Shown one piece after another: positions 767 to 41,397 of a stretch of DNA of 51,970 nt. The notes beneath the pieces were generated by a model, which was given only the letters and a program-made list of their open reading frames with translations, made no database searches and was not told where the DNA came from. Source of the stretch: an uncultured Gammaproteobacteria bacterium. Lineage in GTDB: Bacteria; Patescibacteriota; Patescibacteriia; Buchananbacterales; UBA6539. How positions within the stretch are numbered: position 1 is the first letter of the stretch; each line of letters begins with the position of its first letter. A program made the position numbers and the translations under genes. The DNA lies in contig CAZINP010000004.1 in the NCBI GenBank assembly GCA_964540635.1, positions 1,336 to 53,305 of the forward strand, in the 5' to 3' direction.

Positions 767-841
767 TATTCGTTGTATCTTGGTTTGGTGTCTTCAGCCG
801 GGCGCCGGGTACAACAAAACCCAAAAAAAAGGAGAATTGCA

Positions 842-1087
842 GTGTCGAAGGTAATGAACAGCCGGGGCATTTGTCTCGGTCTCCAACAGGCTGTTGTTTT
901 GGCCGAGGCGGCCACGAGTTTGGCCGACCTCAAGGCCGAACCAAAGGCCCCACTTCAGCCTGAGGGCCGCAAGTGTCAATGCTGCGGCAGCTTGCTGTCG
1001 CAGTACAATCCCGGTCGGGTCTGCCACCCGTGCCGGGAGGCTGGATTTTTCGGCCGGTTCAAGCCGACCAAGGTAGCCGCCTTTTAA
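842..1087 (+). CDS. Small Cys4 zinc-finger-like protein 1
   Basis: AAAAGGAG (827-834) 7 nt before in-frame GTG 842; motif CQCCGSLLSQYNPGRVCHPC. Confidence 0.7.
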   Translation: MSKVMNSRGICLGLQQAVVLAEAATSLADLKAEPKAPLQPEGRKCQCCGSLLSQYNPGRVCHPCREAGFFGRFKPTKVAAF

Positions 1088-1152
1088 GGCGGCAATCGTT
1101 CGTTTTTTTTTCGGCGCGAGGCATCCTGTCTCGCGCTTTGACTTTTTCTTTT
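1076..1152 (+). terminator. Two hairpins with U tracts between the Zn-finger ORFs
   Basis: GCCGCCTT-TT-AAGGCGGC (1076-1093); GCGCGAGGCA-TCC-TGTCTCGCGC (1114-1136) followed by TTTGACTTTTTCTTTT. Confidence 0.55.
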
Positions 1153-1170
1153 ACTATCAAGGAGGTGTGT

Positions 1171-1344
1171 ATGAAAAGGAATGAAGAAGGCAGAAAAAAA
1201 ATTCCCTCACCCGCCAGTTCGGTTAAGGGTGGCAAACCGAAAAGGATTGAAAAGGATCGGTTTTGCCAAGGCCCGGGGTGCAGAACCAAGCTCTCGCCTT
1301 ACAATTTGACCAGCTTATGCTCAGTTTGCCGGTCAAAAAAGTAG
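1171..1344 (+). CDS. Small basic Cys4 zinc-finger-like protein 2 (57 aa)
   Basis: AAGGAGGT directly upstream of ATG 1171; motif CQGPGCRTKLSPYNLTSLCSVC. Confidence 0.75.
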   Translation: MKRNEEGRKKIPSPASSVKGGKPKRIEKDRFCQGPGCRTKLSPYNLTSLCSVCRSKK

Positions 1345-1370
1345 TATATAGCCGCCAATTCAGCGGTTTG

Positions 1371-1398
1371 GACCGAAACCCTTCGGTCTTTTTTATTT
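1371..1398 (+). terminator. Intrinsic terminator
   Basis: GACCGAA-ACCC-TTCGGTC followed by TTTTTTATTT. Confidence 0.8.
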
Positions 1399-1443
1399 AA
1401 TTTTAGGTAAATTGTTATTTATAAAATTCAACCTTTAATTTTG

Positions 1444-1472
1444 TTGACGTCAAGTCAAAAATGTGCTATTAT
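1444..1472 (+). promoter_or_regulatory. sigma70 promoter for giant surface protein
   Basis: TTGACG, 17 nt, TATTAT with TG extension; -35 lies within palindrome TTGACGTCAA. Confidence 0.65.
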
Positions 1473-1594
1473 TAATTTAGTATTTGCGATATATTTTTAT
1501 CTTTTAGCGATAAAAATATTTTTAGCTTTAAATTAATAATTTTTAGCTAAAAAAAGCGATAAAAAAACTAAAACTCAAAACAAAAATAAAATTT

Positions 1595-1738
1595 ATGGCA
1601 GGCTTGACCCAGGAGGTTGTTAATAACTTTAATAAAATTTTTGGTTTTTGCCCTTTTTTTGGCGCAAACAATGATTTTACTAATAAGAAATCAAAGAATT
1701 TTTTTCAGTCCGATCTTGAAATTTCTATTTCGGAATAG
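1595..1738 (+). CDS. Possible 47-aa upstream ORF in leader of giant gene
   Basis: Hand translation MAGLTQEVVNNFNKIFGFCPFFGANNDFTNKKSKNFFQSDLEISISE*; A-rich start context like core genes; no homology recognised. Confidence 0.3.
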   Translation: MAGLTQEVVNNFNKIFGFCPFFGANNDFTNKKSKNFFQSDLEISISE

Positions 1739-1811
1739 ATTGGCGTGAAGAAATTTCTTTGATTTTTTTTGTAAATACAAGGAAAATCAAAGAAAACAAA
1801 AAACAAAATTG

Positions 1812-4800
1812 ATGTTTAGGAAGCTGAAAAATAAAAATTATTTCAGCCTCAAATTCGCTTTTGTGGTCGTGTTTTTTGTTTTATTGATTTTGAGTTTGGA
1901 TTTAAAAACCGCTTTTGCCGGTATCAATAAACAATTAAATTATCAAGGAAGAATCAATACCATTTCCGGTTCAGCCGTGCCGAATGGTACCTATTATATT
2001 AAATTAGCTCTTTATGATGTTTCAAGCGGCGGCACTTGCTTGTGGACGGCTGTTGGTTCGTGTGCGGACGGCAATATCGGCACCACTACGGTTTCAGTCG
2101 TTAATGGCATTTTTTCCGTGCCCTTGGGCGGTGTGAGCCAAAATTCTTTGGCCACTTCCACTATTGATTGGGATAGCGATGAATTATATTTAGGTGTAGC
2201 CATTAGAGGCACGGCTGCCACACCGGTTTATGACGATGAGATGACTCCCAGAAAACGCTTAACCGCTTCGGTTTATGCTTTTAATGCCGATATGATTGAT
2301 GGCATTCATGCGACTTCCACGGCCGCGGTTGCTAATTATTTAGTTTCACTTGATGCCAATAAGATTTTAAACTTGTACGATGGTGGCGTATCAAGTACTT
2401 ATGCCACAACTACTCAATTTTTTGTTGGCACCAGCGATAATCCGGTTTTTAATGTTAATGCTAATAATTACATTAATGTTGGCACGACCACCTTGGCTCA
2501 GAGCACCTTTTCGCAAATGGCTTTTCAAAGGCCATATGGCACCGATTATTTGAACTCAATTTTTATTAATCAGGATTATTCCGGCTCGGGTTTAACCTCA
2601 ACCAGTTCTGCTGCGAGAGTAAGTATGAATGACGTTGGTACTAATTATGGTGAATTATATTTTGGCAATAAAATTTCGGTCGGTGGCAATGCAAGATACT
2701 CATATTTTGAAGCCTGGGATGGCGCCGGAACGCTAACTTATCTTTTAAACGGAATCGGTCAGTATTTGGCCGGTAATTCTACTACGACCGGTTCAACCTA
2801 TTTGGGCACAACAGTTGGTTTGAGTGGGGAATATATCAGTCAATGGTCTGATCTAAGTTCATATCTTTCAATTTCTTCCGGCAATCCATTTGATCAGTGG
2901 CTTGATACCACCTCAACTGTTCAATTTTCAACCGCCACCTCCAGTCGGCTTTATGTTCAGGGAACATCGGGAAATTGCGAAGACATGGGCATTATTTTTT
3001 CCGATTCGGTTTATTCTTCTGATGGTTCGGCAAATTTAACTTTTATTCCTCGCACAGTTGCTTCAGGTATCGGTCTTAATTCAAATTTGTTAGTTGCCGG
3101 AGGGGTTGATTCATTTGGCGCTGGCGCCACGACAACTCTTTTGGTTTCCGGCTCGCTGACAACATTGATGGATGGTGCTTGGTTAAGAACCTCAAATTTT
3201 GAAAGTTCAATTACTCCGGGAGAAATTATACCCATGATAAGTGGTTATAGCAGCGACTCTCAAAAAATGTTATATGTTGAAGATAATTTAGGCATTTATG
3301 ATGTTGATGGGGATGGGGCTGCTTTATCGTTTATGGACAATGCCGGTAATCGCTCAACTCTCTTTTGGAACATTTCTACCCCAACCAATGAGTGGGGAAA
3401 CCTATCATTCTTAGGCGGCATGTATTTAAGTAACGGCTTTGAGGTCGGCAAATCGTCAACTTCCACCGAGCTTGGTGACGGCTGGTATGATACCATAAAA
3501 GTCGGCGCCGGTTTATTGCAAAAAAACCATGTCGGCGATAAGGTTGGTATCCAATTCTCTCAGTCAGCCAGCGATACTCTTTTGGGTTACGGTGTTTTAA
3601 CCGGCAATATCTCAAGTATCTTTACCAATGAACTTAAAGATACATATTCGGCTGATTTGGGATTCTTTACCCAAAATTTTGCTGCCAGCACCACGCCGAT
3701 TGAAGCGATGAGATTGACCCCAACCTCCAGCAATTCCATGCTGCCGTTTTATGCCAGAAATAGTTTAAGTGTTACCGGCAATTCTACTACCACCGGCTCA
3801 AGCTACCTTGGTTCCACGGCCGGTTTGAATGGTGTTTATATTAATGATTGGTCAGACATCGCTACTATTGCCGGTTCCTGGGGAACATCAACCGAGCAAT
3901 ATTTCTGGAACAATACTTCAACCTGGTCCGGGTTTGCTTCGCAGTTTGCTCAATATTTTAATGCCACCACCACTTTAAATGGATTTGATCCGAGCTTATA
4001 CTTTTTAACAGCAAATTTTGGCAGCTACTGGGAGAACTCTTACAACGCCACAACGACACTCAATGGGTTTAACCCATTAGAGTATTTATTGATTTCGGAT
4101 TACATTACTTATTGGAACAACGCTTTTAATTCAACGACCACTTGGGCAGCGTACGATGATAATTGGGCTAGAAATTATAATGCCACCTCCACTTTTGGCG
4201 GTAATTTATCCATTGATGGCAACGCCACCACGACCGGCTCAAGCTACCTTGGTTCCACGGCCGGCTTGAACGGCGTTTATATTAATGATTGGTCAGACAT
4301 TGGCAGTCTAAGCGGCGCCTTAATGTTAACCGATTGGTTTGCCACTTCAACTTGGGCGGGCGGCAATGATTTGGTTGTCAGTGGAACAGCCACTTCCACG
4401 TTTGCCGGCAATGTTGAAATTGCCCAAGGTAAAAATTTACAAGTTGAAACTATTTTTTCATATAGTCCGTTGAATGTTAATACGGATTTGGTTGTTAGCG
4501 GCAACGCCACCACGACCGGATATTTGTCAGTCGGCAATGGTTTTACTGGCGCCGTTTACAGTGATAATAATCTATTGGTTGACGGTTCGGCTTATATTGA
4601 TGAGGGTTTATATGTTTTAAACGGCCCGTCAGTTATGGCCACCACCACCTTATCCGGCTTGTTGACTGTTAATAGCACCAGCACCAGAAATATTGCCGCT
4701 CACTGCAGCGATGAAAATTACGACAATCAGGGTGATTGTGAAACCAATGGTGGAACTTGGTATCCGGCGGCTGATTATGATTTTATAACCAGTGCGGAGT

Positions 4801-7800
4801 CTGGTGGTTATAATTTTTCATCTATATTTCAAAAAAATATTAGCACTGGCGTTTATGGCTACGCCACCAGCACCGATTATACTTTGGGAGGCGAAACCAT
4901 TTCGGCTGGTGTTTTTGGGCTTTCTTCCGATTTTGGTGTTATTGGCTTAGGCGGTAGTGTTGCTGGTTTATTTTATAGTCCCAACCAAGCAATTTATGCG
5001 GTTGGTGAGAGTACTTTTATTGGCGCCGCCCATTTTTATACCAATCAATTTAACTTGGGCGCAGAAGGCAACCCGTTGCTTTCCATTTCCGCGACTTCAA
5101 TTGGCGTTGGTCAGTATTCGGCGCCAAGTGAATTTTTAGGTGTGCAACCTTCAGTTGATGCCGGAGAAATTGCAACTGCCAGATTTAAAACCTGGAATAA
5201 TACCGATCAATTATTTTTAGATTCAACCGGTAGAGTTGGTGTTGCCACCACCACGCCCGGCGGCTACTATGGCGAAAAATTAACCGTGGTTGGTGGTGCC
5301 TATATTCAAGGAGGATTGTATGTAGACGGTATTAAAAACGATTTGTTGCCCGCCTTTGATGATACATATTCTTTGGGTTCATCGGATAAAAGATGGAGTA
5401 ATATTTGGGGCCATAATTTAAATATATATGGCACAGCGACCGTAACTCAGCTTGTTGCCAATAATATACATTCAGATTTGAATCCCAGTGCTGACTTAAC
5501 CTATTCTTTGGGAACCTCAACTGCTCGTTGGGATGAAATTTGGGCAAACAGCATTAATATAACCGGCACCACCACCCTAAGTCAAATTATAATTCAGAAC
5601 GGTTTAAATTTTTCCGGCTCTTTGGAAAAGTTAGCCGACGATTTAGAGTTGCCGCATAAATTAAGAAATATTTATACGGCTGACGGTTATGTTTACGCCA
5701 TTACTTATGCTACCGACAGTGTTAATTCATTTAGAATTATTGATGTCTCTAATCCATCCAAGCCACGAGTGGTGGGTGGCGAAGGTTTAAGCGGCTTGCC
5801 TTTGTCTGACGGTAAGCGTGTTTGGGTTAGTGGCAATTACGCTTATTTGCTTTATAATGCCACCGGTGGATTAAAGAATCCTTTCCGTATTGTTGATGTG
5901 TCAGACAAATCAAATCCGGTTGTGGTTGGTGGTCAAAATTTATATTTTGACACAATTGATACGACTCCTGGTCAGCCGTTTTATGTCTCAGGTAAATATG
6001 CTTATATTTTAGGAAGCACCAATCTTTTTATTGTTGATATTTCAGATCCTTATGATCCGAAATTGGTTTCATCATTGAATGGTGTTGGTTTTACAAACTG
6101 GGACATTAAGGTTCAGGGTGACTATGCTTATGTTTGTAGTCGAAAGAATATTAGCGGTGAAAACAACCCTTTAACCATTGTTAATATTAAAGATAAGAAA
6201 AATCCATTTATCACCAAGGAAATGACTTTCCCGACTTCGGATTTGGATCCCGGGTCATATTGTTGGTCATTGGATGTTTCCGGTGCTTATGTCTATTTGG
6301 GCTTGGGAGAAATCGGAGTAAACCCAAGGGATGAAATATTTAGGATTGTTGATGTTTCTGATCCCTACAATCCGGTTTCGGTTGGTGGAGCCAATGTTGG
6401 TATTAATGATGATCCTGATTTTGAGTTGCCGGAATCAGCCGGTACCATAAGTTATTTAAAGGTTTTTGGCACCCGAGTTTATGCCACGGCCTGGAATGGT
6501 TATTTCTTGGTTATGGATGTTGCTTCTTCAACCAATCCAAAGGTTATCAGCAAAAATTATATTAATGATCCTTCTTATGCCACCACCGGTTGGCCGGTAA
6601 CCTTTGATGTTAAAGGAAAGCATGTCTATGTCGGCTATGCTCCGATTATGGATTATTATGCCACCTCAACCGGCTATTTTAGAATATTTGATTTGCCCGG
6701 GGCTGATATTTGGGGCGGTCACTCCGACGCGTTTTCCGCCGGCTCCTTGCAGGTCTTAAACAACGCTGTCTTTAATCAAAGATTAACCGTTTTGGACAGT
6801 TTGGAAATCGGTTCCGGTGGTTTGTATTCGCAGGGTGCTTTATCGGTTTTAGCCACTTCCACTTCAAGCTATTTTGGCGGCTATCTCGGACTTGGTACAA
6901 CCACGCCAAATTATCGATTGGTTGTTAATGCTTCCAACACCACTGATTATTTATTCCAAGTTGCCAGCAGCACTCACCAAGGAATTTTTGAAATCAGAAA
7001 CGACGGCATCGCCAGATTCGGTTATGATTTTATTGTTAATGGTACCGCCACTTCCACTTTTGCCGGCAATATCCAAATCGCTCAAGGAAAGAATTTGCAG
7101 GTGGAAAATATTTTTGCCTACAGTCCGCTTAATATAAATACCGATTTGAAAATTTTTGGCAACGCCACTACAACCGGCGACCATATCGTCAATGGTACGG
7201 TTCGGGCCACCACATTGACTCTTGGTGGAGTCGAGATAAGCAGTTGGTCTGACATTATTAGCGCTGCTGACCTATGGGCCACTTCTACGGAACAGTATTT
7301 CTGGAATAACACTTCCACCTGGTCGGGCTATGACAGCAATTGGGCCAGAAATTATAATGCCACTTCAACTTTCGGCGGTGATTTGACTATTGGTGGGGCA
7401 GCCACCACGACGGGTCAATTTGTAGCTGTGGGCGGACTCAAGTCAGACAGTATTTTCCTTAACGGAACAACAATTACCAATTGGTCTGATTTGGGTGATA
7501 TTTTGGGCGCACGCAATCCGTTTAATCAATGGCTTGATTCCACTTCCAGCGTGGCTTTTGCCACCACTACAGTTAGCGGTCAATTAACAGCCAGCAGTAC
7601 GACTGCTCGTTTGGTGGCAGCCCATTGCAGCAGTGATGATTATGATAATCAAGGTGACTGTGAAAGTAATGGTGAAACTTGGTATTCTGACGACGACCAT
7701 CAATTTACTACAATCGCCCAAACCAGCAACTACGGCTATTTCCCACTATTTGATAATTACTTTAGTGCTGGTGTTTATGGCTATTCAACCTCAACTGATT

Positions 7801-10373
7801 ATACCAATGGCGGAATAGGCAGTGTTGGCGTTTACGGTAAAGCATCAACTGTTGGTTTGGCGGGCGTAAGTGATAAAATTGGTGGCTTTTTCTATGGTGG
7901 AAGTCAGGCAATAATGGCTATTGGTAATAGCACGTTTATGGGTAGCGGTATCTTTATGACAAACAGTTTTTATGTCGGTTCCGGGAGTAATTCTTTACTT
8001 AGCATTAATAGTGGCTCTATCGGTCTTGGTCAATATACGGCCCCAAGTGAATTTTTCGGCGTTCAACCTTCAACTGATGCCGGTGAAATCGCAACCGCCA
8101 GGTTCAAGACATGGGACAATGTTGATCAATTATTCTTAGGTTCAAATGGCAGCGTTGGTGTTGGCACAACTACGCCCGGTGGCTATTATGGTGAAAAATT
8201 AACCGTGGTTGGTAATTCATATTTCCAGGGCAATTCAACCACAACGGGCAGGTTAGTGGTAACTGACACCTCAACCTTGGCTACAACCACAATGAGTTAT
8301 GGCAGTAAAATTGGAAATTTAAGCGAAGGTAGTTACATGATGTTGACAACCACTAACCTTAACGACCCAGGTAACTTGGGCGTTTCGGTTGGGAATATTC
8401 CGGTTATCAGTTTTTCAAATTCAAGTGAAATTATTAATAATCATACCGGCGGCATAAACAGTTCTTTGATTATTCTTGAAGATTTATTTGGCAGTGGCAG
8501 TGAAGATCCCGACTCTGGAGATTTGCCCACTTTAACCTTTGCCTCAAAAGATATTTCTACCTTAAGTGCGGCAAATATTATATTTGCCACCACAACAACA
8601 GAATTAAATTTTACGGGCGCATCAAAATATAATTTTGACGCCGATGTTTATGCTAATGGTATTTTGCTAACCGGTGCTGACTACGCGGAATATTTCTATA
8701 CCAAAGATACTGATTTGTTGCCCGGCGAAGCGGTTTGTATGGATGTTACCAAAGACAACACTATTTCTCGCTGCACGCGTTTGGCCGACTCAAATATCAT
8801 TGGTATTGTTTCCAGCAAACCGGCAATTACCGGCAATAATAATAAGGAATATATTAATAATCCTAACTACAAGATTATCGGTTTGTTGGGTCAGGTGCCG
8901 GCAAAGGTCAGTACCGAAAACGGCCAAATCAGGCCGGGCGATTCGTTGGCCGCGGGCTCTGTTCCCGGATATTTAGCTAAAGCCAACGCGGGTGATTCAA
9001 CGGTTGGTGTTGCCTTAGAGGGTCTGGAAAGCGGTAATGGCATAGTTAATGTTTTGATTTCTCGCCGCAATAAAAGCTTGACGGTTGAAGAAATTGAAAC
9101 TCAGATAACAGACAGAATTGCTCAGATGGAGATTGAGGATGAAGTTAATGTTCTAATTTCCAATGCTATAAATAATCTTGATATAGATCAGGAGGTTTTG
9201 GATGCAATTGCCCCGGAACTAATATCGCTTGAAGCGAAGATAAATTTAAGCCTTGATGTGCTTTCAAATTCTATTGACGGCAATAATCTTAATATCAAGA
9301 ATTTACAAAATACCGCCGATGACTTTGATTTGCGTATCAATAATCTCGAAGATGCCGTAGAGTCTTTCCAAGATTTTGCTTCATCAACCAATTCTTTACT
9401 TGTTGCTTTTAACTCAGACATTGTTGATTTGCAAAGTCAGAATTTGGAAATGTCGCAGAATTGGCAGTCGGCCACGAGTTCAATTTCTTATCTCTCAGCT
9501 CAAATTGAAAATATTAATCAGATTTTACAAAGTAATGCCGAAGTAGAAACCGAGCTGACTGTTTCGCAAACTGATTTATCAATTAATAATTTGTCGGTTT
9601 CAGAATCTGCCACTTTCTACGGAACAATTTTGGTTAAGGGTGAGGCCGGCTTTGAACATAAAGTGACTTTCTACGAAGATATTATTGTCAAAGGTAAGAT
9701 TTATGCTTCCAAAGACCAGGCCGGCACGGCAATAATCCCGGCTGGGCAGACTTCGGTTGATGTGGTTTTTGGGCAAGAATATTTGAATGCGCCAAAGGTT
9801 GTGGCTAATATAAATGATGATGACGAAACGGTTTTTGCCAACTTCAAGGTGGCCAGAAAATCAAGCAAAGGTTTCAGTATTGTTTTGCAGGAAGCGCTTG
9901 AAAAAGATGTAGCTTTTGACTGGATTGCTTTAGCCATTCAGAGCCAAGCGCCAATTATCCAGGCAATTATTCCTTCGGCTGAAGTTGTGCCTTCCGATAG
10001 CAGTGTTGATTTTCAGGCTCAGGTAATTGATAGCGATACTCTGGAAAATGATTTGAAATATTCTTGGGAAATAACCTCCGGTCCGGGTACTGTCACCGGC
10101 GATACAAGTCACGCGGTTTGGTCTTTAGGTGGTCAGACAATTGAAGCAGATGCTGATTTGGAAATAAAATTAACCGTAATCGATGAGTCAAATATTGTTT
10201 CGCAAACCAAGACGATAAAGATTAAATTTGTTCAAGAAGATGTTTTGTCAGAAGATGAAAGTGGTCAGGAAACACTAACCGAAGAAGACGCCTTAGAGGA
10301 AATTGAAGCACCAATTCAAACCGAGACGGTTTCCGAAGAGAATGATCCCATACCAGAAGGCGCCGGCGAGTAA
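1812..10373 (+). CDS. Giant (~2850 aa) secreted/membrane-anchored modular surface protein: signal/TM, NYQG domain, Thr/Asn-rich repeats, LVIVD repeats, GADYAE autocleavage-type domain, coiled coil, C-terminal beta/Ig-like domains, acidic tail
   Basis: Single ORF; N-terminal basic plus hydrophobic segment; repeats of type RIIDVSNPSKP/FIVDISDPYDP/RIVDVSDPYNP; LLTGADYAEYF motif; ATG 1812 (TTG 1809 alternative). Confidence 0.88.
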   Translation: MFRKLKNKNYFSLKFAFVVVFFVLLILSLDLKTAFAGINKQLNYQGRINTISGSAVPNGTYYIKLALYDVSSGGTCLWTAVGSCADGNIGTTTVSVVNGIFSVPLGGVSQNSLATSTIDWDSDELYLGVAIRGTAATPVYDDEMTPRKRLTASVYAFNADMIDGIHATSTAAVANYLVSLDANKILNLYDGGVSSTYATTTQFFVGTSDNPVFNVNANNYINVGTTTLAQSTFSQMAFQRPYGTDYLNSIFINQDYSGSGLTSTSSAARVSMNDVGTNYGELYFGNKISVGGNARYSYFEAWDGAGTLTYLLNGIGQYLAGNSTTTGSTYLGTTVGLSGEYISQWSDLSSYLSISSGNPFDQWLDTTSTVQFSTATSSRLYVQGTSGNCEDMGIIFSDSVYSSDGSANLTFIPRTVASGIGLNSNLLVAGGVDSFGAGATTTLLVSGSLTTLMDGAWLRTSNFESSITPGEIIPMISGYSSDSQKMLYVEDNLGIYDVDGDGAALSFMDNAGNRSTLFWNISTPTNEWGNLSFLGGMYLSNGFEVGKSSTSTELGDGWYDTIKVGAGLLQKNHVGDKVGIQFSQSASDTLLGYGVLTGNISSIFTNELKDTYSADLGFFTQNFAASTTPIEAMRLTPTSSNSMLPFYARNSLSVTGNSTTTGSSYLGSTAGLNGVYINDWSDIATIAGSWGTSTEQYFWNNTSTWSGFASQFAQYFNATTTLNGFDPSLYFLTANFGSYWENSYNATTTLNGFNPLEYLLISDYITYWNNAFNSTTTWAAYDDNWARNYNATSTFGGNLSIDGNATTTGSSYLGSTAGLNGVYINDWSDIGSLSGALMLTDWFATSTWAGGNDLVVSGTATSTFAGNVEIAQGKNLQVETIFSYSPLNVNTDLVVSGNATTTGYLSVGNGFTGAVYSDNNLLVDGSAYIDEGLYVLNGPSVMATTTLSGLLTVNSTSTRNIAAHCSDENYDNQGDCETNGGTWYPAADYDFITSAESGGYNFSSIFQKNISTGVYGYATSTDYTLGGETISAGVFGLSSDFGVIGLGGSVAGLFYSPNQAIYAVGESTFIGAAHFYTNQFNLGAEGNPLLSISATSIGVGQYSAPSEFLGVQPSVDAGEIATARFKTWNNTDQLFLDSTGRVGVATTTPGGYYGEKLTVVGGAYIQGGLYVDGIKNDLLPAFDDTYSLGSSDKRWSNIWGHNLNIYGTATVTQLVANNIHSDLNPSADLTYSLGTSTARWDEIWANSINITGTTTLSQIIIQNGLNFSGSLEKLADDLELPHKLRNIYTADGYVYAITYATDSVNSFRIIDVSNPSKPRVVGGEGLSGLPLSDGKRVWVSGNYAYLLYNATGGLKNPFRIVDVSDKSNPVVVGGQNLYFDTIDTTPGQPFYVSGKYAYILGSTNLFIVDISDPYDPKLVSSLNGVGFTNWDIKVQGDYAYVCSRKNISGENNPLTIVNIKDKKNPFITKEMTFPTSDLDPGSYCWSLDVSGAYVYLGLGEIGVNPRDEIFRIVDVSDPYNPVSVGGANVGINDDPDFELPESAGTISYLKVFGTRVYATAWNGYFLVMDVASSTNPKVISKNYINDPSYATTGWPVTFDVKGKHVYVGYAPIMDYYATSTGYFRIFDLPGADIWGGHSDAFSAGSLQVLNNAVFNQRLTVLDSLEIGSGGLYSQGALSVLATSTSSYFGGYLGLGTTTPNYRLVVNASNTTDYLFQVASSTHQGIFEIRNDGIARFGYDFIVNGTATSTFAGNIQIAQGKNLQVENIFAYSPLNINTDLKIFGNATTTGDHIVNGTVRATTLTLGGVEISSWSDIISAADLWATSTEQYFWNNTSTWSGYDSNWARNYNATSTFGGDLTIGGAATTTGQFVAVGGLKSDSIFLNGTTITNWSDLGDILGARNPFNQWLDSTSSVAFATTTVSGQLTASSTTARLVAAHCSSDDYDNQGDCESNGETWYSDDDHQFTTIAQTSNYGYFPLFDNYFSAGVYGYSTSTDYTNGGIGSVGVYGKASTVGLAGVSDKIGGFFYGGSQAIMAIGNSTFMGSGIFMTNSFYVGSGSNSLLSINSGSIGLGQYTAPSEFFGVQPSTDAGEIATARFKTWDNVDQLFLGSNGSVGVGTTTPGGYYGEKLTVVGNSYFQGNSTTTGRLVVTDTSTLATTTMSYGSKIGNLSEGSYMMLTTTNLNDPGNLGVSVGNIPVISFSNSSEIINNHTGGINSSLIILEDLFGSGSEDPDSGDLPTLTFASKDISTLSAANIIFATTTTELNFTGASKYNFDADVYANGILLTGADYAEYFYTKDTDLLPGEAVCMDVTKDNTISRCTRLADSNIIGIVSSKPAITGNNNKEYINNPNYKIIGLLGQVPAKVSTENGQIRPGDSLAAGSVPGYLAKANAGDSTVGVALEGLESGNGIVNVLISRRNKSLTVEEIETQITDRIAQMEIEDEVNVLISNAINNLDIDQEVLDAIAPELISLEAKINLSLDVLSNSIDGNNLNIKNLQNTADDFDLRINNLEDAVESFQDFASSTNSLLVAFNSDIVDLQSQNLEMSQNWQSATSSISYLSAQIENINQILQSNAEVETELTVSQTDLSINNLSVSESATFYGTILVKGEAGFEHKVTFYEDIIVKGKIYASKDQAGTAIIPAGQTSVDVVFGQEYLNAPKVVANINDDDETVFANFKVARKSSKGFSIVLQEALEKDVAFDWIALAIQSQAPIIQAIIPSAEVVPSDSSVDFQAQVIDSDTLENDLKYSWEITSGPGTVTGDTSHAVWSLGGQTIEADADLEIKLTVIDESNIVSQTKTIKIKFVQEDVLSEDESGQETLTEEDALEEIEAPIQTETVSEENDPIPEGAGE
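3792..4300 (+). repeat. 68-nt intragenic direct repeat (3792-3859 and 4233-4300)
   Basis: ACCGGCTCAAGCTACCTTGGTTCCACGGCCGG...GATTGGTCAGACAT; 3 synonymous T/C differences. Confidence 0.9.
5110..8213 (+). repeat. Duplicated ~60-aa module (about 5110-5295 and 8028-8213)
   Basis: GQY[ST]APSEF[LF]GVQPS.DAGEIATARFKTW.N.DQLFL...G.VGV.TTTPGGYYGEKLTVVG occurs twice. Confidence 0.9.
5680..6700 (+). repeat. LVIVD-type repeat array (probable beta-propeller) in giant protein
   Basis: About 7 repeats of type v.v.g.yaY...fRIvDVSdP.nP..vG; boundaries approximate. Confidence 0.75.
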
Positions 10374-10394
10374 TAAAATAGAAAAATTTATATA

Positions 10395-10425: not shown

Positions 10426-10435
10426 AAAATCTAGT

Positions 10436-10756
10436 TTAGATTTTCAAGTCATCGACAACTGAGGTATCAGCATCAATGTGTCTTGATCTCTTTGAACCTT
10501 CCGGTTCATAGATTTTGAGGTTGACGCGAGCATTGTTCTTGGCGCCGACGATCTTCAACAAAGTTCTGATCGCTCTGGCGGTCTGGCCTTGGCGGCCGAT
10601 GACATAGCCCATGTCAGAAGGATTGAGATGAAGAGTAATTAATACTCCCATTTCATCCACAGTTCTGTCGGTTTTAACGTCTTCAGGATGAGCCACAATG
10701 GCTTTGACGACGTATTCGACAAACTCCTGATCGGATTGTTTAGCTTCCATATTCAT
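10436..10756 (-). CDS. khpA: KH-domain RNA-binding protein KhpA (YlqC family)
   Basis: FVEYVVKAIVAHPEDV...DMGYVIGRQGQTARAIRTLL (KH GxxG loop); neighbour of rpsP/trmD. Confidence 0.9.
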   Translation of the reverse strand: MNMEAKQSDQEFVEYVVKAIVAHPEDVKTDRTVDEMGVLITLHLNPSDMGYVIGRQGQTARAIRTLLKIVGAKNNARVNLKIYEPEGSKRSRHIDADTSVVDDLKI

Positions 10757-13105: not shown

Positions 13106-13134
13106 TTGACAAAATTAAAAAATTAAATTAATAT
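13106..13134 (+). promoter_or_regulatory. sigma70 promoter divergent from rpsP
   Basis: TTGACA, 17 nt, TAATAT; followed at about +1 by hairpin GTTCGAC-CCGAAGC-GTCGAAC. Confidence 0.7.
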
Positions 13135-13202
13135 TTTTCAGTTCGACCCGAAGCGTCGAACAAAAACCCAACGACCGAACCGGAAAGAAATTGAAAGGGG
13201 GG

Positions 13203-13415
13203 ATGCGAATGAACAATGCCCGCGCTTCCTAGGGTTTTGCTGGGTTTGGCCCGCCTGAACTGACTATCCATGTTTCAGGTAAACAAATCCAGCGCATAAA
13301 GCACGCTTGCGCGTGCGCCGGTAAAGGAAGGTATATAATCAAGTTGCTGCTCCCTGACAGCCGCGATGAGATTTTGCCGGCTTATCCCGGAAATAAAAAA
13401 AGAGGCTTTTGCTAG
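13203..13415 (+). pseudogene. 70-codon frame interrupted by TAG at codon 10 (pseudogene, micropeptide or ncRNA)
   Basis: AAAGGGGGG upstream; MRMNNARAS*GFAGFGPPELTIHVSGKQIQRIKHACACAGKGRYIIKLLLPDSRDEILPAYPGNKKRGFC*. Confidence 0.4.
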
Positions 13416-13438
13416 GTTGGCCTCAATTAACCTGGACT

Positions 13439-13471
13439 GACCCAATGTCGTTTCGGCAGCGGGTCTTTTTT
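13439..13471 (+). terminator. Intrinsic terminator of the 13.1-13.5 kb unit
   Basis: GACCC-AA-TGTCG-TTT-CGGCA-GC-GGGTC followed by T6. Confidence 0.7.
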
Positions 13472-15906: not shown

Positions 15907-15972
15907 AATTAATCAAAAGGAGTTGTTCTTTTCCCATTGTCTTTACCCTCAACCCGCAGGAGACTTGAATCT

Positions 15973-21605: not shown

Positions 21606-21634
21606 TTGACAAAATCTGTCAAAAGTGCTATAGT
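21606..21634 (+). promoter_or_regulatory. sigma70 promoter with TTGACA-N5-TGTCAA inverted repeat
   Basis: TTGACA (21606-11), 17 nt, TATAGT (21629-34); TGTCAA at 21617-22. Confidence 0.75.
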
Positions 21635-21661
21635 TATTAGTCGCTCTTTTCAGCTATATTT

Positions 21662-21756
21662 TTTGGCTATTACCGGTTTTTTCTCAATATTTTTGAGGCA
21701 AAACCGGTAGTAGTCAAACGGAAACGGCAAAACCCAAACCCGCGGCCGCTGGCCGC
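21662..21756 (+). ncRNA. Structured 5' leader of the 408-aa gene
   Basis: 19-bp stem TTTGGCTATTACCGGTTTT/AAAACCGGTAGTAGTCAAA (2 G-U) plus CTCAA/TTGAG; GCGGCC-GCT-GGCCGC abutting the SD. Confidence 0.55.
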
Positions 21757-21769
21757 AAGGAGTGTGGAA

Positions 21770-22990
21770 ATGAGTAAGGCAGAAACCGGCAATATCGTGG
21801 CCGTAAACACGATAATAACCAGAATCGCCCCCAGTCTTGAGTGCGGCCTGTTTGCCGCGCTTCTATGGGTTCGGGCGATTCGTGAGGCGCTGAACATCAG
21901 TGCCAATGTCCAATGGCGGTTTTGGTCGACCGCCCAAATGACCCGTATGGGTCGCTCGCCCGAAGCGATCGCGGCTCTGCGAGCGGCCCGCATCATCCAT
22001 TTTGATGTCGGTAAGGGAATTTTTGACCAGCATGGGACAGATGAGAACCGGGAGTTTTCCCGGGTATCGTCTCTGGATCTCGTGCTGGCTCAGTGCGACT
22101 TTACGAAGCGCCGCCCCTGGCTGCGCGACATTGTCGCGTTGGTGCGAAAAAACGACCTGGATGGCCAGGCCGTCTCCAGCGCGCCAGACAACCTGCGTGT
22201 CTTGGCCACCGGCCTGATCAGCGCCTTTCCCGACGATTCGGGTTTGGTACTGGACTTTATGGCTATTGGCTTCGTCGGCATGTTTGCTCGCTGCAAGGCG
22301 GGCGTGCCGGCCGCGGACGCCTTCGGCCTGGCCGAAATGGCCCAGGGCGTGGCCGAGGCCTGCCCCAAAAAGTCTGACTGGTTTATGAAAATGGCCGACT
22401 GGGCCGTTGACCAGAACCAGAAGGACGAAGCCGAGGCCAAAGAGATTGTGGCCAGGGCAGTCCAGGAAAAGCAGTTTCGCTGGGTGCAAGTGCCCGGCCT
22501 GCCGCGCCAGGTAAAGGTGATGTGGGCCGAGGGCCGCTCACCCAAGATCGGGCCCATTAGCCGGTCCAAGCTCGGCGGCGCTGATGTTTGCATCATTGCT
22601 CGTCCCAACGGGCAGGTGCAGATTTTCGGCCGGAACCTTTTCATCGGCCAAGGGGATCAGCGTCGGGTCTATCGTATTGACCTGGCCGGAGTCGCACGCT
22701 TGTTGCGCATCAAAGAGGCGCGCGCCGAGGGCAAGCGCCTGGGCAACAATCCCGAAGACTGGGACCAGCCCGGGTACGTGTACTTCGAGGATGGCACAGC
22801 CTGCCCGTGGTACCTGGCCGAGTTCAGGACCATGGTTGCCAACGGCACACAGTCTTCACCCGACGTGCCCCCAACCAAAATGGCGATGGACGAAATCTTT
22901 CGTTTCACTTGCCTTGCCCTGGGCGAGTGCAGTTTGCTCATTCAGGACGACCAGGGCGAATTTCAGCCCTGTGATCAACCCGCCGCTTAG
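21770..22990 (+). CDS. High-GC hypothetical protein, possibly degenerate DHH/MYG1-like
   Basis: AAGGAG 7 nt before ATG 21770; HFDVGKGIFDQHG resembles MYG1-type DVG.G.FDHH. Confidence 0.7.
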   Translation: MSKAETGNIVAVNTIITRIAPSLECGLFAALLWVRAIREALNISANVQWRFWSTAQMTRMGRSPEAIAALRAARIIHFDVGKGIFDQHGTDENREFSRVSSLDLVLAQCDFTKRRPWLRDIVALVRKNDLDGQAVSSAPDNLRVLATGLISAFPDDSGLVLDFMAIGFVGMFARCKAGVPAADAFGLAEMAQGVAEACPKKSDWFMKMADWAVDQNQKDEAEAKEIVARAVQEKQFRWVQVPGLPRQVKVMWAEGRSPKIGPISRSKLGGADVCIIARPNGQVQIFGRNLFIGQGDQRRVYRIDLAGVARLLRIKEARAEGKRLGNNPEDWDQPGYVYFEDGTACPWYLAEFRTMVANGTQSSPDVPPTKMAMDEIFRFTCLALGECSLLIQDDQGEFQPCDQPAA

Positions 22991-23014
22991 GCGGGGTAGT
23001 CCAAAAACCAACCG

Positions 23015-23048
23015 GCGCCCGAGTCGCAAGACCCGGGCGCTTTGCTTT
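23015..23048 (+). terminator. Intrinsic terminator
   Basis: GCGCCCG-A-GTC-GCAA-GAC-CCGGGCGC followed by TTTGCTTT. Confidence 0.75.
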
Positions 23049-23084
23049 GCCAAAAAAAGGCAAATAGGCTAAAATAATAGCGCT

Positions 23085-24074
23085 ATGATTATATTTTTAT
23101 ACGGCCAAGATACTTTTCGTTCTCGCCAAAAATTGAAAGAGTTGAAAGAAAAGTTTACTCGAGAAATTGACAAATCCAATTTAAATTTGGAAATTTTGGA
23201 CGGTGCCAAACTTGACCTGGCTGAGTTTGAGCGAGCAATTAAGACGATGCCGTTTTTAGCCAAAAAAAGAATGGTGGTGGTGGAAGATTTTATTTCCAAA
23301 AATCGCAGCCCCAAAGCAGCCAAAGAAATTGTGGAAATTTTAGACAAAAAAACCCCGCCAGATTTAATTTTAATTTTTTGGGAAAGCCAAGATTTTGGCG
23401 CGAAAAAATTTACCAAAGGCAAAGCGCCCAAAACCGGCGGACCGCTTTTTGCGCGCTTGAGTCAAGAGCAATATTCTTATCAATTTGATTTGCTTGATTC
23501 TGCCGGCACTTTGGCTTGGGCAAGCAAACAATTCAAAGACCGGGATAAAAAGATTGCCGGCGACGCTTTGCGTTTGTTGGCTGAAATGATTGGCAATGAT
23601 TTGTGGCGCTTTAATTCAGAGATAGAGAAGCTGGTTAATTATAAAAAAGATCAAGAGATAAAATCGCAAGACGTAATGGAATTGGTTCAATCAAAGCTGG
23701 AAGAAGATATATTCAAATTAACTGATGCTCTCGGTCAAAAACAAAAGGCCTTGGCCTTGAAATTAATCGGTGATCAGCTAAAGAGCGGCACCAGCCCAAC
23801 AGAACTCTTGGCAAAAATCGCCTGGCAATTTAAAAATTTAATTTTGGTCAAAGATTTTATTGAAACAAACGGCGCTGGTTACGACCCGACCAGGCTTGGT
23901 TATCAACTCGGCCTTCATCCTTTTGTGATTAAAAAAACGGCCAATCAAGTTAAGAATTACGGCCTGGATGATTTAAAAAATATTTATCGTCAACTTTTGC
24001 AAATTGATCATCGCCTTAAATCAAGCCCGTTTTCGCCGGAATTAATGTTTGATTTATTGGTGGCAAAATTTTAA
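23085..24074 (+). CDS. holA: DNA polymerase III delta subunit
   Basis: MIIFLYGQDTF, TMPFLAKKRMVVV, GNDLWRFNSEIEKL, IFKLTDAL, LHPFVIKK. Confidence 0.92.
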   Translation: MIIFLYGQDTFRSRQKLKELKEKFTREIDKSNLNLEILDGAKLDLAEFERAIKTMPFLAKKRMVVVEDFISKNRSPKAAKEIVEILDKKTPPDLILIFWESQDFGAKKFTKGKAPKTGGPLFARLSQEQYSYQFDLLDSAGTLAWASKQFKDRDKKIAGDALRLLAEMIGNDLWRFNSEIEKLVNYKKDQEIKSQDVMELVQSKLEEDIFKLTDALGQKQKALALKLIGDQLKSGTSPTELLAKIAWQFKNLILVKDFIETNGAGYDPTRLGYQLGLHPFVIKKTANQVKNYGLDDLKNIYRQLLQIDHRLKSSPFSPELMFDLLVAKF

Positions 24075-26248: not shown

Positions 26249-26300
26249 CTGGTAAATTCCTTTCGTCAGTCGGTTTGGGTTTTATAGCGGTCAAAAAAAC

Positions 26301-36300: not shown

Positions 36301-36707
36301 GTAAGATCTATATGCTCAAGCTTAACCATATGGTTGAAGATAAGATTCATCAGCGCTCAATCGGTCCTTACTCGTTGATTACTCAGCAGCCGCTTGGCGG
36401 TAAAGCGCAATTTGGCGGCCAGCGTTTCGGGGAAATGGAAGTCTGGGCGCTGGAAGCTTATGGCGCGGCCAATATTTTGCAAGAAATTTTGACCATAAAA
36501 TCAGACGACGTTCCCGGCCGTAGCAAGGCTTATGAATCAATTATTAAAGGTGAACCAATAAAGAGGTTAAATATTCCTGAATCCTTCAATGTTTTATTGA
36601 GAGAGCTCAACGGCTTATGTCTCAATATTGATTTGGTGGGTGGCACAAAGGTCGAAGATGAAACGGATAGTAAACCAGAAGAGGGACAGGAATCAAATCC
36701 GGCTTAA
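33324..36707 (+). CDS. rpoB: RNA polymerase beta subunit
   Basis: [46 protein letters not shown]; ATG 33324 preferred over GTG 33258. Confidence 0.98.
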
Positions 36708-36733
36708 TTAATTATATATTAAAAGATACTTAT

Positions 36734-39700: not shown

Positions 39701-40657
39701 ATGAGAACCTTCCATACCGGTGGTGTGGCCGGACTTGATATCACTCAAGGTTTACCGAGAGTTGAAGAAATTTTTGAAGCCAGGCCGCCAAAGAATCGCG
39801 CTTTTATTTCCGAAGTTGACGGCTTAGTAAAGATTGAAGAAGCTAAACGCGAAGAACAGAAACTTAATCGCCATCGCACCGTTAAGATTATTCATGAAAG
39901 TTTGGATCAGGACATCTATCCCTTGGGTGCTGACAAGAAAAAAGCTTCTGAAATTTTGATTAAAGACGGTCAGCACGTTAAACGCGAAGAAGCGATATTT
40001 GTTAATAAGAGCGGTGAAAAAGTTTTGGCCAAACGAGAAGGCGTGGCTAAGATTGAAAAAGACTGCATTAGCGTTCAAACCAAAGAACAAAAAGCGACCG
40101 CCTATCAAATTCCGCCGGAATTTCATATTTTGGTTAAAGACGGTGATTTAATTGCCAAGGGTCAGCCCTTAACTAACGGCAGTCTTGATCTAAAACAATT
40201 ATTTACTTTGCAGGGCAAAGAAAGAACCAGTAAATATATTGTTGATGAGATCCAGCAAATTTACTCTTCGCAAGGCCAGAAATTGGATAATCGTCATATT
40301 GAATTAATTGTTAAGCAGATGTTTTCTCGAGTTGAAATTACTGACCCGGGTGATACAGAATTGCTTTCCGGTCAGCGCTTGGAAAAATCAGAGCTGGCTG
40401 AAATCAACGAACTTGCCGCAGCAAACAACGGCAAGCCGGCAGTTGGTGAAGAATTGCTTTTGGGTGTTTCCAAGGTTTCTTTGTCCACTTCCAGCTTTTT
40501 ATCTGCGGCTTCATTTCAAGAGACCTCAAGAGTGCTTATTAATGCTGCGGTTGAAGGCAGGATCGATTATCTCAGGGGCTTAAAAGAAAATGTAATTATC
40601 GGCAGATTGATTCCGGCTGGTACCGGTTTTAAGCCAACAACCGAAGAAAAAAATTAG
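36734..40657 (+). CDS. rpoC: RNA polymerase beta' subunit
   Basis: KPETINYRT, NADFDGDQMAVH, QLTMRTFHTGG, GLKENVIIG. Confidence 0.98.
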   Translation: MIEEKNIPDFNALKITLASPMKIHEWSHGEVTKPETINYRTQKPEKDGLFCERIFGPSKDWECYCGKYKKIRYKGIVCDKCGVEVTRSVVRRERMGHIDLACPASHIWFLRGVPSKIGLMLDLSPQAMEKVIYFADFIITHVDEDLKKETLEQIRQEFKAKRKKIDADFAQQLNMVKSRLGQGKKEMTPEQLEDEMNKETTVYEEAKKEKIKELEQILKIVEQELKELKPLKIISEHVYQDLSLKYGPIFEADIGASAIRHLLEKIDLEKLVAELEQEILTNFTPAREKILKRLRLARNFYKNNLRPEWMILTVIPVIPPDLRPMVPLDGGRFATSDLNDLYRRIINRNNRLKQLQELNAPEVITRNEKRMLQEAVDALIDNSARHGKTVVASTGQKRMLKSLADILKGKQGRFRQNLLGKRIDYSGRSVIVVGPKLKLGECGIPKRMALELFKPFVISQLIKREYVHNVRSANRFIEGGHNEVWDILDEIVKDAYVMLNRAPTLHRLGIQAFKPVLIEGKAIQVHPMVCEAFNADFDGDQMAVHVPLTEKAKWEAGNLMLASKNLLKPATGDPVARPTKDMVWGSYYMTTVREPASGKIRVFADPQEAILAYQLKHISMQDKIKVKADAWMKKKLELAGMKENIVETSVGNILFNQALPDDYQYKNKIMDSKQLRIIVADFLEKYELEKVAVLLDKIKDLGLKYLTRSGYSWGMGDMPRVEKKAEIIKQGEVAVEEVEGQYEMGLLTDSERHTKIIEIWMNTKESIVKLSQNTLDQFGPIYTMVESGARGSWSQLIQIIGMKGLVTNPAGDIMELPVKGNFQEGFDVLEYFISTHGARKGLSDTALRTASAGYLTRRLIDVSQEIVVTEEDCGDDQGLVLTKKESEAIGLNLADRIKGRFLVEDLIDPKTKKVVVSSKEMIDSNLVQKIKDMDLPEIKVRSVLTCRTKRGCCQKCYGWDLAYNRPVSVGTAVGIIAAQSIGEPGTQLTMRTFHTGGVAGLDITQGLPRVEEIFEARPPKNRAFISEVDGLVKIEEAKREEQKLNRHRTVKIIHESLDQDIYPLGADKKKASEILIKDGQHVKREEAIFVNKSGEKVLAKREGVAKIEKDCISVQTKEQKATAYQIPPEFHILVKDGDLIAKGQPLTNGSLDLKQLFTLQGKERTSKYIVDEIQQIYSSQGQKLDNRHIELIVKQMFSRVEITDPGDTELLSGQRLEKSELAEINELAAANNGKPAVGEELLLGVSKVSLSTSSFLSAASFQETSRVLINAAVEGRIDYLRGLKENVIIGRLIPAGTGFKPTTEEKN

Positions 40658-40676
40658 GATTCGTAAAATTTGAGAT

Positions 40677-40705
40677 AGCGCCCCCGAGAAGTCGGGGGCG
40701 CTTTT
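40677..40705 (+). terminator. rpoC terminator
   Basis: AGCGCCCCCGA-GAAG-TCGGGGGCGCT followed by TTT. Confidence 0.85.
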
Positions 40706-40758
40706 AAATAAAAAAAGTGCCAACGGTGGGACCGTTGGCAAGAAGGCCGGCGAAAAGA

Positions 40759-41268
40759 TTACCAGACCCGATTTTCAGCCAGCATTGCGCCGAGGCGCTG
40801 GTCAAAGGTTTGAATTAGAAGGCTCAGCTTTGGATCGCACACGTGCTGAGCTTCGAAGTGAATTCTGACCTGAGCCCGACTTATTGCCTCGTGAATCCTG
40901 TCGTTAAGGGTTGTGGGCACATACGATCCCTGGCAAGACTCAAGAACTCGCTCTTTATTCGAAATCCAGTTCGGCGATGTTTTTTCCCAGCCGGGCATTA
41001 TTTTTTCCATTGCCCTGATAATTCCTAGGTCTTTCTGGTCTGTGCCCAGCTCCCGACCGATTTCGATTTTTTCTTCAATTTTGCCCTTGGTTTTCTCTCT
41101 GAACGCATAATGGGCAAAGACGATCGAAAAGTTTTCGTCGTCATGGATAACACTGGTAAGCAGGGCGAGGCGAACTCTTCTGGTCTCAGGGAAAATTAGC
41201 GCGCGAACAATCACGCGCCTGGAAGAAATTTCCAGGATTTTGGGGATTGATTCGTACTCTTTTGGCAT
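40759..41268 (-). CDS. Hypothetical protein (169 aa)
   Basis: GGAGG 5 nt before ATG; own promoter; hairpin TGCCAACGGT/ACCGTTGGCA plus T tract downstream. Confidence 0.7.
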   Translation of the reverse strand: MPKEYESIPKILEISSRRVIVRALIFPETRRVRLALLTSVIHDDENFSIVFAHYAFREKTKGKIEEKIEIGRELGTDQKDLGIIRAMEKIMPGWEKTSPNWISNKERVLESCQGSYVPTTLNDRIHEAISRAQVRIHFEAQHVCDPKLSLLIQTFDQRLGAMLAENRVW

Positions 41269-41397
41269 TTTTCCTCCAATTGCTAGGCATTAAGCCATTG
41301 CTATGGTTTGGGTTAAGGAACACAAAAAGCCGATTGCCAAAAAAACTGATTTACGGCTACGGCTCAAACAAACAAGGAAACAAAGAACAGATAAAAA

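Follow-up and report, generated by a model that had tools for sequence, protein, structure and literature searches.

A C/A-rich word upstream of Shine-Dalgarno sites in a Buchananbacteria-like genome: a possible RNA cis-element of 5' leaders

Introduction

The same short C/A-rich word recurs in the 5' leaders of several genes in a Patescibacteria genome. This raises the question of whether it is a signal, and at which level such a signal would act, or a by-product of leader composition. To our knowledge, gene regulation in uncultivated Patescibacteria is almost unexplored; a literature search on their leaderless and Shine-Dalgarno (SD) usage, and on the word itself, gave nothing relevant. The window analysed here (the whole stretch of DNA under study, 52 kb) belongs to an uncultivated, Buchananbacteria-like member of this group. 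About 60 kb from close relatives was added; the sample is small. The nearest metagenomic relatives are L081-84, with L082 as the nearest long one, and four extra leaders were taken from L166, a syntenic Candidatus Buchananbacteria contig.

Sites and their leaders

The original prediction placed the word in the leaders of five unrelated accessory units. All five sequences were found at the predicted places, on the sense strand; each follows a promoter and precedes the SD or start codon. The promoters upstream of them are strong (TTGACA-N17-TATAAT), and the distance from the -10 box to the motif ranges from 18 to 95 nt over the sites. The features are as follows.

738-743 and 761-766, + strand: -35 and -10 boxes of the site 1 promoter
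818..825, + strand: site 1, AACCCAAA, in the leader of a Zn-finger orphan gene of 81 aa that starts at GTG 842; originally given as AAAACCCAAA, 816-825
830-834, + strand: site 1 SD, AGGAG, 4 nt past the motif
13106-13134, + strand: promoter of the orphan transcript
13141-13466, + strand: orphan transcript, 326 nt
13163..13171, + strand: site 2, AAAACCCAA, the 7-mer core alone without AACCCAAA, near the 5' end of the orphan transcript
~13437-13466, + strand: terminator-like hairpin of the orphan transcript
21606-21634, + strand: site 3 promoter
~21657-21718, + strand: very stable hairpin in the site 3 leader
21729..21740, + strand: site 3, AAAACCCAAACC, 135-nt leader of a 406-aa orphan gene (ATG 21770)
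21757-21762, + strand: site 3 SD, AAGGAG, with a small hairpin (GCGGCC-GCU-GGCCGC) between motif and SD
26329-26301, - strand: site 4 promoter; the motif begins 18 nt past the -10 box
26272..26283, - strand: site 4, AAAACCCAAACC, leader (~50 nt) of a 108-aa orphan gene (ATG 26248)
26263-26257, - strand: site 4 SD, AAAGGAA
41426-41398, - strand: site 5 promoter
41320-41316, - strand: UUCCU at site 5, the motif being directly 3' of it; pairing with the SD is predicted
41305..41314, - strand: site 5, AACCCAAACC, leader of a 169-aa orphan gene (ATG 41268)
41277-41273, - strand: site 5 SD, GGAGG
15950..15957, + strand: CAACCCGC, dapA leader
51730..51740, - strand: AACCCTACAAC, leader of gspE (T2SSE ATPase)

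The last two had been listed as weaker relatives of the motif. They are indistinguishable from chance and are not counted as members. The five units are also not all genes: four sites lie in mRNA leaders, and site 2 belongs to a non-coding transcript with no ORF longer than 24 aa and, by the site, only one of 7 codons. In the predicted fold of this RNA the motif is paired with GGGUUUU at 13232-13238 (AAAACCC:GGGUUUU). Comparison of the transcript with Rfam gave no match at gathering or permissive thresholds. Short resemblances had led to a suspicion of RNase P, 6S or SRP RNA, for none of which there was Rfam support. Sites 1 and 2 have only a 7- to 9-mer in common. A homologue search with the 108-aa protein found none at all.

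The gap between motif and SD is 4, 13, 20 and 29 nt at sites 1, 4, 3 and 5, respectively. It is occupied at site 3 by the GCGGCC-GCU-GGCCGC inverted repeat and at site 5 by small stems predicted by RNAalifold. This puts the motif on the 5' side of the SD in the mRNA, at a distance that the 30S subunit can span, as for SD-upstream enhancers or standby sites. The word had been proposed to be a single-stranded signal; the folding predictions do not bear this out, since its unpaired probability of 0.35-0.70 is of middle rank in each leader.

Frequency of the word

Whether the C/A-rich word exceeds chance depends on the test: it is enriched in the SD-led class of genes and not window-wide. Over the window, AACCCAA was observed 18 times against 14.7 expected, which is no enrichment, and ACCCAAACC three times against 0.61 expected, all three copies being in leaders. 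In 19 hand-defined leaders, with all 7-mers allowed for, the 7-mer was not significant (216 of 1000 shuffles), but 9-mers were (7 of 1000).

An SD is present in 9 of the 34 window genes. AACCCAAA was found in four of these nine (region -60..-16 or -50..-8), 4-29 nt 5' of the SD, a degree of sharing that, among 3000 shuffles, was matched by any 8-mer in 0-1 and by any 7-mer in 5-6; the nine-gene set is objective, and the gene set and region of this best test were picked after the data had been seen. With the four L166 leaders added, the count became 5/13, which no 8-mer reached in 1500 shuffles. The shuffles in these two tests preserved dinucleotides and were made leader by leader, so that composition was kept. 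The word is the most shared one in the leaders, level with the SD word AAGGAG. These tests uphold the view of a shared, non-random sense-strand leader word of SD-led, mostly orphan genes.

No copy was found in the upstream regions of the 25 window genes without an SD, in agreement with the original statement that core-gene leaders lack the word. This absence carries little weight and is largely trivial, because 25 of the 34 genes have no SD and many of these have the -10 box just 6-14 nt ahead of the ATG, which leaves scant leader sequence. Judged from this spacing, the core genes of the window look leaderless.

Occurrence in relatives

The 10-mer AACCCAAACC occurs three times in the window, each time in intergenic DNA, and twice in L081-84, both copies being intergenic and in L082. 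More distant Patescibacteria loci (2.7 Mb, both strands counted) contain three copies, all within CDS, and about 250 kb of intergenic DNA from these more distant organisms contains none; ACCCAA was found in only 1 of their 149 SD-led upstream regions. Neither L082 copy is in a clear leader. The first is located after a stop codon and before a terminator. The second is about 20 nt 5' of a -35 box, though it could be transcribed from a weaker promoter further upstream. At the syntenic site of L082, between ftsK and a small gene downstream of rpoC, the word is present at a non-homologous position with an unrelated neighbour gene, which means that there is no positional conservation. A scan of genome contigs with the L082 16-mer gave only scattered single matches in many phyla. 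No enrichment was seen in IleRS-anchored GTDB loci and most Mur-ligase-anchored metagenome loci, which are too distant (≤56-68% aa identity): AACCCAA occurred 4 times and its reverse complement 6 times in 475 upstream regions.

Conservation could be followed in the leader of the 169-aa gene, for which three orthologous loci were available. Relatives of this family were not found in genome contigs.

41269..41345, - strand: conserved leader block of the 169-aa gene, including site 5

In the last 60 columns of this leader, 49 are invariant; the CDS, by comparison, is 68% identical in nucleotides, and its third codon positions 47-50%. The site 5 motif is exact in L165 and shows a single A-to-C change in L164. 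In the RNAalifold consensus it falls unpaired into an interior loop, next to a helix (UUCCU:AGGAA) by which the SD would be sequestered. Judged from the aligned orthologues, the motif in this leader is under purifying selection.

The word was also present in the leader of an L166 membrane-protein gene, 4 nt ahead of the SD. However, terminator stems of L166 are built from the same 7-mer, and the word may therefore be a mere part of a helix. The leaders of the 406-aa orthologues (L161-163 and L166; 43% aa identity) lack the motif.

Interpretation of the motif

The motif is over-represented, keeps to the sense strand, lies near the SD, recurs in relatives and, in one leader, is under purifying selection. 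We tentatively favour, at somewhat below even probability, the reading that AACCCAAA(CC) is a lineage-specific RNA cis-element of 5' leaders, a putative site for a trans-acting factor that sets translation. The transcribed strand would carry the word 4-29 nt ahead of the SD in the smaller group of genes that have both a long leader and an SD, and the longer gaps might be bridged by the small hairpins. It would act as RNA, a factor would bind to it, and translation initiation would be affected, so that the level of translation of the leadered mRNAs is set. The candidate factor may be a sequence-specific RNA-binding protein or the platform/S1 region of the 30S subunit.

This proposed element resembles SD-upstream enhancers and standby sites in being a short, G-poor mRNA tract on the 5' side of the SD, at most about 30 nt away, and, at site 5, in forming a predicted unpaired loop adjoining the SD-sequestering helix. 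Known translational enhancers (A/U-rich S1-binding and CA-rich tracts of E. coli) are defined by composition and not by an exact 8-10-mer; the present motif differs from them in being C-rich instead of A/U-rich and in belonging to a single lineage. No cis-regulatory RNA was matched by Rfam at the gathering score over the whole window, and permissive searches (E≤5-10) around sites 2 and 5 gave chance-level matches only. The motif is also similar to ligands of KH proteins (KhpA/KhpB; the C-rich ligands of eukaryotic PCBP-type proteins), being C/A-rich and compatible with a single strand. We know of no defined binding consensus for KhpA/B. A khpA gene is present in the window (10436-10756; Pfam KH_KhpA-B), but its proximity is uninformative, since in many bacteria this core gene is part of the rpsP neighbourhood.

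The word might instead reflect no specific recognition at all. A/C-rich, G/U-poor linkers ahead of the SD may be favoured in this lineage, either as a means of holding the ribosome-binding site open or as standby tracts of a generic kind, and the repeated word would then be due to convergence and sampling luck. Such A/C-only tracts without the exact word do occur ahead of SDs (AACAAAAACCAAAAACACAACCAAGGGGAGG in L081, GACAAAACAAAGG in ZnF2). The failure of the 7-mer to be enriched window-wide or, after correction for all words, in the 19 leaders, the loss of the motif from the 406-aa orthologues and the ordinary predicted accessibility of the motif also agree with this explanation. On the other hand, shuffles that keep composition almost never match the observed sharing, the exact word is kept in orthologous leaders whose genes are near saturation at third codon positions, and the identical 10-mer found in L082 intergenic DNA is missing from the 250 kb of other Patescibacteria intergenic DNA. 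We regard a purely compositional origin as doubtful, although it retains a substantial share of the probability. Pairing with a trans-encoded sRNA through a G/U-rich seed (GGUUUGGGUU) adjacent to the SD, defining an accessory-gene regulon, would account for a tract of 8-12 nt that is located just 5' of the SD, beside the ribosome-binding site, and common to unrelated mRNAs, as is typical of seed matches. The site is kept in the orthologous mRNAs of the 169-aa gene and absent from those of the 406-aa gene. The orphan RNA contains GGGUUUUG and GGGUUUGG and is the sole candidate in the window for such a regulator. Comparison of the whole RNA with the leaders by RNAduplex gave meaningless full-length duplexes, and a k-mer complementarity test was used instead. 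The complementarity of the orphan RNA to the nine leaders at k=8 was equalled by 881 of 2000 of its own shuffles, so that the suggestion of an sRNA target fails for this RNA. Moreover, its G/U boxes are internally paired in the predicted fold, it has no counterpart at the syntenic position of L166, and no other transcribed GGTTTGGGTT-like sequence is present within the window. An sRNA target is accordingly considered improbable.

Action at the level of transcription was considered in two forms, a DNA operator and a nut-like signal in nascent RNA that modulates elongation or termination. The nut-like form would combine a 5'-proximal U/C box like boxA with a downstream A/C-rich tract bound by the NusA KH domains. 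Boxes resembling boxA (GYTCTTT) are indeed present near the 5' ends of three window leaders and three L166 leaders.

15924-15932, + strand: TGTTCTTTT, boxA-like, dapA leader
21642-21650, + strand: CGCTCTTTT, boxA-like, 406-aa leader
41389-41381, - strand: TGTTCTTTG, boxA-like, 169-aa leader

The reference boxA is UGCUCUUUA in rrn and CGCUCUUA in lambda, and NusA binds short single-stranded spacers adjoining boxA, in which AUU is required (PMC2724277). The motif has no U and hence no AUU. Although the order of box and A/C-containing tract is like that of nut and rrn sites, the spacing here varies between 9 and 80 nt, the match to boxA is imperfect, and the genes concerned are short orphans standing singly instead of long operons. 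The box is also statistically insecure: TGTTCTTT occurs in 3 of 13 leaders, a count that any word reaches in 650 of 1500 shuffles, and the 169-aa orthologues (L164/L165) have not kept the U/C box. An operator would fit the L082 copy upstream of promoters; however, the distance from the -10 box varies from site to site, the orientation is always sense, and dyad symmetry is absent. A transcription-level element seems quite improbable. Finally, the accessory units might descend from one mobile promoter-leader cassette or one donor genome. All units have near-consensus promoters and SDs, and the region of the 406-aa gene has 50% GC against 41% for the window. This shared origin, part of the original prediction, is already largely refuted and is highly improbable: no similarity extends past the word of 8-12 nt, nothing like a REP, MITE, cassette flank or terminal repeat was found, the unit proteins are unrelated and without Pfam domains, neither the site 5 leader nor the 406-aa family was found in scans of viral contigs, and site 5 is vertically inherited with its gene in a gene-specific leader.

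Implications

Among the genes, the motif is confined to those that depend on an SD, which are a minority here; the core genes of this genome have a leaderless look. A broader scheme, which we consider unlikely, is a post-transcriptional regulon peculiar to the Buchananbacteria-like CPR clade, in which leaderless or SD-less housekeeping genes would be set apart from a small set of niche-specific orphans with long SD-containing leaders, whose shared C/A-rich site would be recognised by an RNA-binding regulator of their own. Candidates for this role would be a KH-domain protein (KhpA/B), NusA or an sRNA from another part of the genome. Even if nothing but a compositional preference lies behind the word, it records how leaders are designed in this clade. 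It also provides a simple pattern with which the full MAG and its relatives can be searched for the co-regulated genes, and thereby a concrete, testable handle on the separate control of niche-specific genes in reduced genomes.

Genes and leaders in the window

The window has a GC content of 41%, and its relatives are Patescibacteria. The closest named relative is MHIR01000072.1 of Candidatus Buchananbacteria (L166), syntenic with the window at 13.4-25.4 kb (66-75% nucleotide identity). Orphan genes without Pfam domains are scattered among housekeeping genes: khpA, rpsP, smc, dapA, polA, holA, rpsT, ileS, ruvA, Mur ligase, ftsK, recA, rpsF, the T2SSE ATPase, and two that we take from position and size to be rpoB/rpoC. 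khpA is a core gene in its usual rpsP neighbourhood. A Shine-Dalgarno (SD) sequence precedes 9 of 34 genes; these are mostly orphans, with leaders of 50-135 nt. In several core genes, only 6-14 nt separate a -10-like box from the ATG, a spacing that points to leaderless or nearly leaderless mRNAs. Starts in this survey include:

15821, minus strand, smc
17119, plus strand, polA
23085, plus strand, holA
30952, plus strand, ruvA
41490, plus strand, ftsK
48691, plus strand, methyltransferase

Other genes with bearing on the leaders are:

842-1087, plus strand, first small Cys-rich protein
1812-10373, plus strand, giant ORF of 2853 aa with LVIVD repeats
47884-48054, plus strand, second small Cys-rich protein (ZnF2; 56 aa, CxxC...CxxC)

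The giant ORF has an A/T-rich leader of ~330 nt from a promoter at 1444-1472. A word, TTTTTTGGC, is common to four leaders:

~1656, giant gene
~10847, minus strand, khpA
~21660, 406-aa gene
~41343, minus strand, 169-aa gene (3' arm of hairpin 1; exact form not kept in orthologues)

Position of the C/A-rich word

The word with the core AACCCAA is present at all five predicted positions and strands, each downstream of a near-consensus TTGACA-N17-TATAAT promoter:

818-825, plus strand, site 1, 81-aa Zn-finger gene
13163-13171, plus strand, site 2, orphan transcript
21729-21740, plus strand, site 3, 406-aa gene
26283-26272, minus strand, site 4, 108-aa gene
41314-41305, minus strand, site 5, 169-aa gene

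The original prediction placed all five in leaders of accessory units. This holds for the four mRNA leaders of the Zn-finger, 406-aa, 108-aa, and 169-aa genes, where an SD and then a start codon follow the word. The copy at 13163 is instead part of a predicted orphan non-coding transcript:

13106-13466, plus strand, strong promoter and 326-nt transcript between rpsP and smc
13437-13466, terminator-like hairpin at its end

The 326-nt stretch has no ORF >24 aa, and Rfam gave no match at E<=10. In the predicted fold (MFE z-score -2.7), AAAACCC pairs with GGGUUUU 70 nt downstream. The contrast with core genes, whose leaders lack the word, is largely trivial, as 25 of the 34 genes have no SD and several core genes look leaderless.

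Similarity between the sites is limited to 8-12 nt. The word lies anywhere between 18 and 95 nt from the -10 box, a spread that speaks against a DNA site tied to the promoter. The gap to the SD is 4 nt at site 1, 13 nt at site 4, 20 nt at site 3, and 29 nt at site 5. Site 3 has an inverted repeat (GCGGCC-GCU-GGCCGC) in the gap and site 5 has RNAalifold-predicted stems there, so in every leader the word stays close to the SD. Its predicted thermodynamic accessibility is unremarkable, apart from the consensus fold of site 5.

Enrichment

Over the whole window, AACCCAA is at chance level (18 copies; 14.7 expected). Inside coding sequences it is antisense in 11 cases versus sense in 2, an asymmetry that seems to reflect the G-rich coding strand, consistent with a GC skew that is positive throughout the window. 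Among 19 leaders delimited by hand, the 7-mer did not withstand all-word correction (216/1000 shuffles); the 9-mers did (7/1000).

The 8-mer AACCCAAA occurs between -60 and -16 in four of the nine SD-led window leaders. When each leader was shuffled with its dinucleotides preserved, any 8-mer common to four of nine arose in 0-1 of 3000 shuffles, and any 7-mer in 5-6 of 3000. Because the gene set and region were partly post hoc, the real significance is considered to be ~1e-2 to 1e-3, not lower. With four L166 leaders added, AACCCAAA is found in 5/13; none of 1500 shuffles gave any 8-mer in five, and only the SD word was as widespread.

Leader of the 169-aa gene

Two orthologues of the 169-aa gene are available (69% and 66% aa identity in loci L164 and L165):

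41269-41345, minus strand, conserved leader in the window
488-593, conserved leader in L164
45-150, conserved leader in L165

In the last ~60 nt, 49 of 60 columns are invariant among the three, so that the leader is better conserved than its coding sequence (68% identical; third positions 47-50%). The word is exact in L165 and reads AACCCCAACC in L164. RNAalifold predicts a 5' hairpin (three compensatory pairs), pairing of UUCCU directly 5' of the word with the SD AGGAA, and the word itself as an unpaired interior loop. Rfam gave no match for this leader, a candidate gene-specific regulatory leader with a predicted SD-sequestering helix. It also holds a direct repeat, UAGCAAUGG / UAGCAAUUGG, overlapping the SD.

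Occurrence in relatives

All three window copies of the 10-mer AACCCAAACC are intergenic. In the four nearest metagenomic relatives there are two copies, both intergenic and both in locus L082, within an identical 16-mer, TAAACCCAAACCAAAA:

1948-1963, plus strand, L082
14071-14056, minus strand, L082

One lies 3' of a stop codon and 5' of a terminator that works in both directions. The second sits in the gap separating the divergent promoters of ftsK and an orphan gene; neither is in a clear leader. In 2.7 Mb of more distant Patescibacteria loci (both strands counted), all three copies are inside coding sequences, with none in ~250 kb of intergenic DNA.

The L166 position syntenic with site 2 (downstream of smc, convergent) has no counterpart of the orphan transcript. 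An SD-led 170-aa membrane-protein gene occupies it, with the leader ...CAACTCAACCCAAAGCAAGGAG...ATG and the word again 4 nt 5' of the SD. In the convergent gap between this gene and smc, AACCCAA/TTGGGTT inverted repeats form two hairpins (848-865 and 877-896), where AACCCAA serves as a terminator-like stem.

The 406-aa gene region (22001-24000) has 50% GC and may be of foreign origin. Relatives of the protein number only four (41-44% identity): three are database proteins and the fourth is encoded in L166, whose sequence is that of L161. Each lies in the same polA...holA neighbourhood. The leader is predicted to fold stably (-61 kcal/mol, z = -6.3), with a very stable long hairpin at ~21657-21718 (plus strand). 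Its arm ACCGGTTTTTT recurs in the orthologous leaders (L161-163). The C/A-rich word is absent from the orthologue leaders (43% aa identity), and among 149 SD-led upstream regions from other Patescibacteria only one has ACCCAA. These absences, and the L082 copies outside clear leaders, indicate by comparison that the word is real but young and limited to a narrow clade.

Possible function

The word is classified with short 5'-UTR cis-elements. We tentatively favour an RNA-level element beside the SD: a trans-acting factor would recognise the word in the leader RNA and, once bound, would tune translation of the leadered mRNAs. This reading is preferred because the word is on the sense strand only, lies near the SD, is conserved exactly in unrelated leaders, and is under purifying selection in one orthologous set. 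It is less likely, as the foremost alternative, that the word is just a compositional A/C-rich linker. Such a linker would fit the A/C tracts found in L081 and in the ZnF2 leader (GACAAAACAAAGG), which do not contain the exact word; the shuffle results and the conservation of the word speak against it. An sRNA seed-match site seems improbable, as the sole candidate RNA in the window fails the complementarity test.

A transcription-level operator or nut-like element is slightly more doubtful still. It would be suggested by a GYTCTTT box near the 5' end of several leaders, which resembles boxA (UGCUCUUUA; PMC2724277):

15925-15931, plus strand, SD-led leader
21643-21649, plus strand, SD-led leader
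41388-41382, minus strand, SD-led leader

In L166, three leaders also carry the box: those of the membrane-protein gene, dapA, and the 406-aa homologue. Against this reading, the box does not withstand all-word correction in the pooled 13 leaders, L164/L165 have not kept the copy of the 169-aa leader, and the word contains no AUU, which a spacer must have for NusA to bind it (PMC2724277). The box may alternatively be an anti-SD mimic. Of the earlier interpretation, a shared, non-random sense-strand leader word is retained; the common cassette origin is very improbable, with neither flanking homology between the sites nor viral relatives found. The link to KhpA proposed there would be speculative, given the ordinary setting of khpA beside rpsP.

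Rfam gave no match for the word at the window level, a literature search for it returned nothing relevant, and we know of no described equivalent. The small sample and the uncultivated organism temper the weight of the finding; the difference between core genes that look leaderless and SD-led accessory genes bearing the word is nevertheless a concrete, testable lead.
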